A stretch of DNA of 64,000 nt from Escherichia coli (GTDB lineage Bacteria; Pseudomonadota; Gammaproteobacteria; Enterobacterales; Enterobacteriaceae), in assembly GCF_041248615.1 (NCBI RefSeq), contig NZ_CP158427.1; one strand, given 5' to 3'. Made by a program: the position numbers. Below, in pieces: positions 57,701-60,700 of the stretch (position 1 is its first letter; the number at the start of each line of letters is the position of its first letter).

Positions 57701-60700
57701 TCAAAAGCCCTTTCAGCGCGTTTTAACACGGCACTGGAAGCCAGCCTGCAGGCATGGCAGCAGAAACACCACGCGGTCATTCTGGTGTCGCCTGCCGTGG
57801 TACAGGGGGCACCGGATATCACCCGGGAAATCCAGCAGGATATTGCCCGGCGAATGAGGGCGGAACCATGAGATGCCGGGGGCTGATTGCCCTGCTGATA
57901 TGGGGGCAGAGTGTGGCCGCCGCCGATCTTGGCACCTGGGGCGATCTGTGGCCGGTAAAGGAGCCGGACATGCTGACGGTGATCATGCAGCGCCTGACGG
58001 CACTGGAGCAGTCCGGTGAGATGGGCCGGAAAATGGATGCCTTTAAGGAGCGGGTGATCCGTAACAGTCTGCGGCCCCCTGCCGTGCCCGGTATCGGACG
58101 CACAGAGAAATACGGCAGCCGGTTGTTTGACCCGTCCGTCAGACTGGCTGCGGATATCCGGGATAACGAAGGGCGGGTGTTTGCCCGTCAGGGTGAAGTG
58201 ATGAATCCGCTGCAGTATGTTCCTTTTAACCAGACGCTGTATTTCATCAATGGCGATGATCCGGCGCAGGTGGCCTGGATGAAACGCCAGACGCCGCCCA
58301 CACTGGAGAGCAAAATTATCCTCGTGCAGGGCAGTATCCCGGAGATGCAGAAGTCTCTGGACAGCCGTGTTTACTTTGACCAGAACGGTGTGCTCTGTCA
58401 GCGCCTCGGCATTGATCAGGTCCCGGCACGGGTGAGCGCCGTTCCCGGCGATCGCTTCCTGAAGGTGGAATTTATTCCGGCAGAGGAGGGCAGAAAATGA
58501 AGCGAAGCCTGTGGCTGCTGATGTTATTCCTTCTCGCCGGTCATGTCCCTGCAGCGTCTGCGGATTCTGCCTGTGAGGGGCGTTTTGTAAACCCGATCAC
58601 GGATATCTGCTGGAGCTGTATTTTCCCGCTCTCGCTGGGCAGTATCAAAGTCAGTCAGGGTAAGGTCCCCGACACGGCGAACCCGTCGATGCCCATTCAG
58701 ATTTGTCCGGCACCGCCGCCGCTGTTCAGGCGTATCGGGCTGGCCATTGGTTACTGGGAGCCGATGGCGCTGACGGACGTCACCCGGTCACCGGGATGCA
58801 TGGTGAACCTGGGCTTCAGCCTGCCGGCTTTTGGTAAAACGGCACAGGGAACGGCGAAAAAGGATGAGAAGCAGGTGAACGGGGCGTTCTATCACGTTCA
58901 CTGGTACAAATACCCGCTGACGTACTGGCTGAACATCATCACATCGCTGGGCTGTCTGGAAGGTGGTGACCTGGATATCGCTTATCTTTCTGAAATCGAC
59001 CCCACCTGGACGGACAGCAGCCTTACCACCATTCTCAACCCGGAAGCCGTCATTTTTGCCAATCCGATAGCACAGGGGGCCTGCGCAGCAGATGCCATTG
59101 CCAGTGCCTTTAATATGCCTCTCGATGTTCTGTTCTGGTGTGCCGGTTCGCAGGGCAGTATGTACCCGTTCAATGGCTGGGTGAGTAATGAGTCCAGTCC
59201 GTTGCAGTCCTCCCTGCTGGTCAGTGAACGCATGGCATTCAAGCTGCACCGTCAGGGCATGATTATGGAAACCATCGGGAAAAATAACGCCGTCTGTAAT
59301 GAATATCCGTCCCCAATCCTGCCCAAAGAACGCTGGCGTTATCAGATGGTGAATATGTATCCGGACAGCGGACAGTGCCATCCGTTCGGGCGCAGTGTGA
59401 TGCGCTGGGAGACGGGAAAAAATCCGCCCAACACAAAGAAAAACTTCGGCTACCTGATGTGGCGTAAACGTAACTGTGTATTCCTGTAAATCATTTTAAT
59501 GAATAAGAGGAAATGAAAATGGCAACAATGGACAGTAAATATATTCAGCACCTCAGGAAAATAGGTGCTGTGCTGCTCAGGCTGATAAGCAGAACATTAA
59601 AATTATTTCCTTTTGGTCTTGTAATAGTGCCCGTTATATTATTTTATTTTGCACCTGACAGTTTTCTCGCTGAAATTATTCATGAATGGAAGAAGGCAGA
59701 TATATCAGAACAAGTGACACTTGTCAGATTATATCTGAAGGTGACATTTACATGTGTGTTTATGGCTGTTTTTCTCAATTATCTTTTTTCTGATGAGTTC
59801 ATGCCTGTAAATAGCAGAAAGTGAGAAATATCATGAACCGGAAAATATTTGCACTTTTTGCTCTGACAGCAGGGATGCATCTTGCTGTTCATGCTTCAGA
59901 AAATGTGAACACAACTGAAAACCGCCAGTTCCTGAAGCAGCAGGAAAATTTAAGCAGACAACTGCGAGAGAAACCTGACCATCAGCTGAAAGCCTGGGCG
60001 GAGAAACAGGTGCTGGAAAACCCCCTTCAGCGTTCAGATAACCATTTTCTGGATGAGCTGGTTCGTAAACAGCAGGCTTCGCAGGACGGGAAACCCCGGC
60101 AGGGTGCCCTGTATTTTGTGTCGTTTTCCATACCCGAAGAGGGGCTGAAAAGGATGCTGAGCGAAACCCGGCACTACGGTATTCCCGCCACGCTGCGGGG
60201 CATGGTGAACAACGACCTGAAGGCCACGGCTGACGCCGTGTTGTCCCTGGTGAAAGACGGCGCAACTGATGGTGTTCAGATCGACCCGACGCTGTTTTCA
60301 CAGTACGGCATTCGCAGCGTTCCGGCCCTGGTGGTGTTCTGCAGCCAGGGGCACGACATCATCCGGGGAAATCTGCGCGTCAGGCAGGCGCTGGAGAAAG
60401 TGGCCGCCACGGGTGACTGCCGGCAGGTGGCTCATGATTTACTGGCAGGGAAAGGAGATTCCGGGAAATGAAACGTATTTTACCTCTGATACTGGCTCTG
60501 GTTGCCGGCATGGCACAGGCTGACAGCAACAGTGATTACCGGGCCGGTTCTGATTTTGCCCGTCAGATTCAGGGGCAGGGTACAGGCAGTATTCAGAGCT
60601 TTAAGCCACAGGAGAGTATCCCCGGCTATAACGCGAATCCGGACGAGACAAAATATTACGGTGGCGTGACTGCCGGCGGGGATGGCGGCCTGAAAAATGA

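Follow-up and report, generated by a model that had tools for sequence, protein, structure and literature searches.

The traU-trbC interval and the gene it holds

The window analysed here is a stretch of 64,000 nucleotides from an Escherichia coli contig (NZ_CP158427.1, assembly GCF_041248615.1). On its plus strand, traU (58497..59489; Pfam TraU E=7e-110, NCBIfam equivalog PRK13737) is followed by trbC (59833..60471, plus strand, 212 aa; NCBIfam PRK13730 E=2e-133), and between the two lies an ORF on the same strand that runs from an ATG at 59513 to a TGA stop at 59822-59824 and encodes 103 aa. The window sequence thus confirms the sequence-only reading of the locus, in which an ORF of 103 aa had been placed between traU and trbC at 59513-59824. 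A Shine-Dalgarno-like AAGAGGA, read from the sequence, precedes it at 59505..59511 on the plus strand and is kept as GAGAGGA in the homologue L001. The GAGG core of this motif ends 2 nt before the ATG at 59513..59515 (plus strand), which is the start used by some GenBank records, and 8 nt before a second ATG at 59519, which is the RefSeq start in the R100 and pJJ1886_5 copies. Because of this spacing, the second ATG is the better-placed start, and the coding sequence is described here as the 101-aa form (59519..59824, plus strand), the same CDS as WP_000224411.1 in pJJ1886_5. For trbC, the start annotated in identical plasmids is the ATG at 59833; a GTG at 59821, given in a mechanical ORF list, is an upstream extension only. 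Since trbC starts at 59833 and not at 59821, the ORF and trbC do not overlap. The order is therefore traU stop, 29 nt, ORF (start 59519), 8 nt and trbC ATG, all on one strand.

The composition of the ORF (35% GC, GC3 32%) differs from that of traU and trbC (55% GC, GC3 62-67%) and points to a foreign origin. By our own arithmetic, an open frame of 103 codons at 35% GC has a chance of about 5e-4 per frame, and no ORF of at least 40 aa is listed in the other frames of the segment. Homologues keep the frame down to 21-33% identity. When the window allele was compared with eight divergent alleles by the Nei-Gojobori method, dN/dS was 0.21-0.51 with dS at or beyond 1, the mark of an old gene under purifying selection. 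Only 4 amino acids and 5 nucleotides separate the window allele from that of R100, at a dN/dS of about 1; so few changes do not bear interpretation, but they give no sign of strong recent constraint. The ORF is a genuine protein-coding gene.

The protein has two hydrophobic maxima in a 19-residue Kyte-Doolittle profile, 2.16 at aa 27-45 and 1.87 at aa 68-86, and these bear out the two membrane segments proposed earlier. Transmembrane segment 1 (aa 29-45, LFPFGLVIVPVILFYFA; 59603..59653, plus strand) is preceded by a conserved K28 and contains the conserved P31, F42 and Y43. Next comes a net acidic loop, predicted to be periplasmic (aa 46-68; 59654..59722, plus strand), which carries P46, an invariant W57 and, in an AlphaFold2 model, a short helix at aa 47-59. 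Transmembrane segment 2 (aa 69-91, VRLYLKVTFTCVFMAVFLNYLFS; 59723..59791, plus strand) starts with a conserved LVRLYLK motif. The model, calculated from the family alignment, has a mean pLDDT of 83 and places helices at residues 2-44, 47-59 and 62-90. All 20 members aligned have a loop of 23 residues that lacks indels and is always net acidic, and their termini are mostly net basic. An alignment of ten representatives shows K28, P31, F42, Y43, P46, W57 and L71 to be invariant; when distant members from the profile search are added (20 sequences), W57 is still invariant and P31, P46 and L73 are nearly so. The window protein has all the marks of the family: two transmembrane helices, basic termini, an acidic loop of 23 residues, and P31, P46, W57 and L73. 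From the positive-inside rule we infer a hairpin with both termini inside and the loop in the periplasm, and a location in the inner membrane. The acidic loop with its invariant tryptophan would then be the likely contact surface of the protein.

Distribution of the family and its relation to known proteins

The ORF protein was used as a tblastn query against the 72,556 plasmids of PLSDB. Homologues are present in 2,014 records, 1,158 of them at 90% protein identity or more and 849 below 60%; the latter include pSLT-type and IncFII plasmids. About 4,400 PLSDB plasmids match the flanking tra DNA, and a family member is therefore found in about 46% of that number. Nearly all the homologue-bearing plasmids (1,927 of 2,014) are typed as conjugative. 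The F plasmid has no copy, and its traU and trbC are separated by 8 nt. Each of the ten F-type (MPF_F) loci inspected has the homologue in the traU-trbC gap, co-directional with both genes. The expectation that F-like operons usually pass straight from traU to trbC is thus true of F but not of F-like plasmids at large.

The 701 nt around the ORF recur with 100% identity in many plasmids, pJJ1886_5, pEC_L8 and pEC_L46 among them. The CDS of pJJ1886_5 (WP_000224411.1) is annotated as a hypothetical protein, as is the copy between traU and trbC of R100 (WP_000224416.1), which has 96% protein identity to the window copy. These are the same gene in the same traU-trbC position as the window ORF, with no substantive difference. 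The exact window protein occurs on at least 1,000 public contigs under the name "MULTISPECIES: hypothetical protein [Enterobacteriaceae]". Relatives in UniProt are named "Conjugative transfer protein" (Q08JF9_ECOLX, G9G1B9_ECOLX, Q93GM9_SALTY), and the annotation of pEFC36a reads "yfdA, putative conjugative transfer protein" (AFV47271.1). The name yfdA is unusable for this ORF; it clashes with a gene of the F leading region, to which it refers and which is not the traU-trbC ORF (bioRxiv 10.64898/2026.01.09.698686).

A search of the full-text literature found no paper describing the ORF, and no experiment, transcript or protein evidence for it. One published comparison of the conjugation regions of F-like plasmids searched with Tra proteins of F, R100 and relatives alone and does not deal with the ORF (PMC5102898). 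Two R100-specific ORFs elsewhere in the operon, YfhA and YhfA, have been mentioned as absent from F (PMC2762410). The comparison of tra operons across F-like plasmids shows the ORF to be a known, widely conserved and uncharacterised tra-region gene, already annotated as hypothetical in R100 and in more than a thousand further F-like plasmids. It is not the unusual, lineage-specific extra that had been suggested from the window alone. As an item of this window it is a routine conserved hypothetical of R100-type tra operons, and as such it matters little.

Other members are 21-60% identical to the window protein in the ten-representative alignment, and the tblastn identity to L008 is 65%; the tblastn E-values lie between 6e-61 and 3e-8. 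A profile search of 1.84 billion representative proteins returned just 46 matches at E≤1e-3, which indicates that the family is small. Pfam, NCBIfam, PADLOC and PHROGs searches with the ORF and ten family members gave nothing above noise; PADLOC had no matches for the ten members, and the best PHROG was an unnamed family at E 0.01. The family profile had no match among PDB sequences, and fold relatives were only generic helical hairpins. Rfam models run on 59300-60000 gave only sub-threshold snoRNA noise.

Profile comparisons with known components of the transfer region were likewise negative. In hhalign, the family profile matched none of TraL, TraE, TraP, TrbD, TrbG, TraR, TrbI, TrbE, TrbA, ArtA, TraQ, TrbJ, TrbF, TraS (F and R100), TraA, TraX and other R100-specific ORFs at a probability above 2.5%. 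In size and setting the protein resembles TrbE (PF11100), TrbA, TrbF, TrbD and TraQ, which have about 60-130 aa and one or two hydrophobic segments and are encoded co-directionally between essential mating-pair genes. These five show no sequence or profile similarity to it (hhalign probability ≤1.7%), and it belongs to a different family. Membership in the TrbE, TrbA, TrbF, TrbD, TrbJ, TraQ or TraL families finds no Pfam or NCBIfam match and no hhalign probability above 1.7%; the TrbE encoded in the window itself (62300-62560) scores E=3e-15 with its family model. TrbE, TrbA, TrbF, TrbD and TraQ are dispensable for F transfer.

TraP, the pilus-stabilising inner-membrane protein of F, is also a membrane protein encoded in the tra operon, but kinship with it was rejected (BLASTP E=49, hhalign probability 0.6%). 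One match carries the label "TraP" and proved to be a chimera. In the traU-trbC gap of an E. marmotae plasmid, a TraP homologue with 61% identity to F TraP contributes its residues 1-134, which continue in frame into family residues ~17-45; a frameshift follows. This fusion looks like an accidental recombination product, a decayed copy rather than a sign of kinship.

Several distant members of the family are found inside P/X-type (MPF_T) transfer clusters. In L012 the member follows genes for a coupling protein, Cag12 and TrbM/KikA, and in L015 it follows those for Cag12 and a 612-aa protein. In both L017 and L018 it comes after TrbH, TrbI, a coupling protein and an S26 peptidase, with a topoisomerase downstream. 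Counting both plasmid types, the family member lies within or beside transfer genes in each of the 16 loci inspected and never among resistance, virulence or maintenance genes. Its presence in P/X-type clusters indicates an association with conjugation clusters in general and not with F-specific parts, and judged from these gene neighbourhoods its function is probably not tied to such parts.

A variable cassette slot with recombining alleles

The ORF is part of a low-GC variable cassette (59490..59889, plus strand) that consists of intergenic DNA, the ORF and the signal-peptide region of trbC, and that is replaced relative to F, where about 70 unrelated nt occupy this position. The signal-peptide codons of trbC (59833-59895) belong to the variable segment, the region being MKLSMKSLAALLMMLNGAVMA in F and MNRKIFALFALTAGMHLAVHA in the window, and homology resumes at the SENVNT codons. 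The traU-trbC gap can thus be described as an exchangeable cassette slot with its right edge inside the trbC signal peptide. In the F-type loci inspected, the slot holds either the ORF homologue alone (R100, pSLT-type) or the homologue together with other unknown ORFs of 144-173 aa. Position in the operon is by itself no proof of a role in transfer; unrelated-looking cargo occupies the same slots, for example an HNH endonuclease between trbC and traN. A 12-nt direct repeat (ATTCCTGTAAAT at 59480 and ATGCCTGTAAAT at 59801) was considered as an insertion scar and rejected, a repeat of such length being expected by chance in 800 nt. Its second copy (59801) encodes the residues MPV, which are common to about half of the family members.

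The alleles of the ORF diverge in backbones that are otherwise nearly the same. Between the window and L006 (pSH9-CTX-TEM), traU has 98.6% DNA identity and 100% protein identity, whereas the identity of the ORF falls to 43%, at a dS of about 1. The window TraU protein is 100% identical to those of R100, L006 and L011 (the common WP_000830838.1), and the L006 and L011 alleles of the ORF are only 41-43% identical to that of the window. The tra operon of the window is itself a mosaic, F-like at trbG and traR-traC and R100-like at the traU-trbC slot. With synonymous sites saturated, an exchange of old allelic cassettes by recombination is a better explanation of these comparisons than fast evolution of the protein.

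A putative accessory role in conjugation and its alternatives

No promoter-like or terminator-like site is present in or beside the ORF. Since it has its own ribosome-binding site and neither a promoter nor a terminator of its own, its protein is probably made only with the long tra transcript from the traY promoter. We infer co-transcription with the tra operon by read-through; the ORF would then be co-expressed with the pilus-assembly and mating-pair genes. As F lacks the gene, F-type transfer can do without it, and it counts as accessory. Its dispensability is also supported by the fused and frameshifted copy of E. marmotae and by a plasmid in which an IS1 element lies inside the 701-nt stretch of traU, ORF and trbC. 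The protein most likely works in the envelope of the donor cell, where it would be a non-essential accessory to the conjugation apparatus, or a modulator of it, with a standing comparable to that of the F proteins TrbE, TrbA, TrbF or TraP. An essential function in the secretion system is improbable, as is a role in exclusion. With moderate confidence, then, we regard the ORF as the R100-type allele of a family of inner-membrane hairpins of about 100 aa, a donor-side, dispensable conjugation accessory made from the tra transcript. The sequence-only reading had offered an accessory transfer or an exclusion component. The accessory part stands, given the location in the tra operon and the absence from F; the exclusion part is not supported.

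Other readings of the gene were weighed against this one. The protein could be hitch-hiking cargo unrelated to DNA transfer, such as a membrane-acting fitness factor, a toxin- or immunity-like peptide or a protection against phages or competitors, that uses a permissive slot and the tra promoter. The foreign composition of the ORF (35% GC against 55% in the flanks) is what such cargo would show, and elsewhere the traU-trbC and trbC-traN gaps hold assorted ORFs, among them hypotheticals of 150-173 aa, a P-loop-like protein and the HNH endonuclease. The family also occurs in non-F plasmids, with no dependence on F-specific partners, and F, with no copy of the ORF in its operon, transfers well. 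Yet neither the defence nor the phage library (PADLOC, PHROGs) has a match, the position is strictly fixed in F-like plasmids, and transfer genes surround or adjoin the family member at every one of the 16 loci. We consider cargo possible but on balance unlikely. Much further from likely is a dead reading frame, non-functional, unexpressed and kept by chance in inserted AT-rich DNA. In its favour, decayed copies occur and dN/dS within the allele is about 1, a value from just 5 nucleotide differences. Such a frame would not be expected to stay conserved down to 21% identity with dN/dS of 0.2-0.5, to preserve its motifs, its loop length and its Shine-Dalgarno sequence, or to be kept by about 2,000 plasmids, and we give this explanation very little credence.

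An allele-specific factor for exclusion or partner discrimination, recognising a cognate component of the mating apparatus as TraS does with TraG, would account for the small size, the inner-membrane location and the conserved periplasmic loop predicted for the protein. It would also account for alleles that are 21-65% identical, with dS of at least 1, in backbones with near-identical traU, since specificity genes typically show such a pattern too. TraS of F and R100 is likewise an inner-membrane protein with strongly diverged alleles among otherwise similar plasmids, but it is larger (161-173 aa), is encoded between traG and traT, and has no sequence similarity to the ORF protein (hhalign probability 0.2% for F and 2.5% for R100). 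F-like plasmids already encode TraS and TraT. Furthermore, dN/dS stays under 1 throughout, conservation is strongest in the loop, where variation would have to be greatest for a specificity determinant, and no promoter-like site, as expected for an exclusion gene expressed in repressed cells, was found in or beside the ORF. Ancient cassettes and recombination explain the divergence at saturated dS equally well. The deep allelic diversity is thus the one feature compatible with exclusion, a role that found no support in similarity to TraS and that we hold to be improbable. The protein might instead serve the plasmid periplasmic thermonuclease Nuc/SNase as a partner in the membrane, be it an anchor, an export helper or an immunity protein; in two divergent P/X-type loci (L012 and L019) the stop codon of the family member overlaps the start of the SNase gene. 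Three other non-F loci have different downstream genes, however; pCS0010A and pNDM-SDCRK18-7 carry the thermonuclease with the direct F-type junction and no family member, and a pSLT-type plasmid has a family member, with no thermonuclease annotated in the part inspected. In the F-like plasmids inspected, the two genes show neither linkage nor co-occurrence. The partnership is rejected as a general explanation, and for the window ORF it is highly improbable.

The preferred reading, a dispensable donor-side accessory, leaves room for a more specific and far more speculative one, in which the family is a hitherto unrecognised conjugation-associated membrane factor common to F-type and P/X-type plasmids. 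Its old, recombining alleles and its periplasmic loop with the invariant tryptophan might adjust a step that depends on the partner, for example pilus dynamics, the specificity of mating pairs or a further layer of exclusion. We give this only a slight chance; if it were true, the traU-trbC slot would be a cassette for specificity and not a place for junk cargo. This unstudied membrane family is present in the mating-pair block of nearly half of the F-like PLSDB plasmids, many of clinical importance, among them the ST131-associated F2:A1:B- and the pSLT-type virulence plasmids, and models built on F alone miss it.

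Mosaic composition of the tra operon

The tra operon of the window is a mosaic, as is seen when the segment at 53582-54861 is set against the traU-trbC slot. Within that segment the window resembles F: trbG is present and the spacing from traR to traC is short (traR, 54480-54701, with traC 159 nt further on). R100 differs on both points, being without trbG and having four additional ORFs that separate traR from traC, but its traU-trbC slot is of the same type as that of the window. The layout of pJJ1886_5 matches the mosaic arrangement.

Variable contents of the traU-trbC gap

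Approximately 60 plasmids carry sequences with 60-80% DNA identity to the ORF, the small membrane protein gene between traU and trbC, and these include both an intact diverged allele (locus L001) and a decayed form (locus L002). In L002, from E. marmotae pRHBSTW-00777_2, a TraP-like gene (2590-3278) is found inside the gap. Residues 1-134 of its product are 61% identical to F TraP and are joined in frame to residues ~17-45 of the family; the remainder of the family gene runs on in a different frame. One plasmid, CP098976.1, has an IS1 element somewhere within the 701-nt traU-ORF-trbC stretch, which breaks the match into two pieces and may interrupt either the ORF or an adjacent gene.

A second ORF of 150-173 aa (L001, 3351-3803; L006, 2860-3381; L009, 2793-3245; L010, 2369-2887) often lies downstream of the family member in the gap, in some cases with overlapping stop and start codons. 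The 259-aa database protein P0054 is a fusion of a family member to this second ORF, which has no match in Pfam or NCBIfam and is absent from both the window and R100. In two divergent loci of non-F, P/X-type transfer clusters (L012, 1929-2731; L019, 420-1243), the family member is followed by a staphylococcal-nuclease-type gene, with the stop of the first overlapping the start of the second. The thermonuclease gene of F-like plasmids is located beyond finO, and its presence there is independent of the family member.

An imperfect palindrome within the ORF (59697-59737; 20-nt arms, 75% complementary, 1-nt spacer) shows no obvious conservation in the L001 homolog, which is 58% identical, and is probably due to chance.

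The trbC-traN junction and the apparent end of the operon

In the window, trbC and traN overlap directly (60468-60471). Because related plasmids (loci L001, L006, L007, L010 and L013) have a 123-aa hypothetical gene, an HNH endonuclease gene, or both separating trbC from traN, this junction is a second variable cargo slot of the tra operon.

The operon of the window appears to be truncated directly after traF (62523-63296). Where pJJ1886_5 continues from traF to trbA, traQ, trbB and more genes, the window instead has, in region 63296-63954, fragments of a DDE_Tnp_1_5 transposase (63348-63689, + strand) and of the C-terminus of IstB_IS21 (63760-63954, - strand). If this truncation is real, the window's copy of the plasmid may be defective in transfer.
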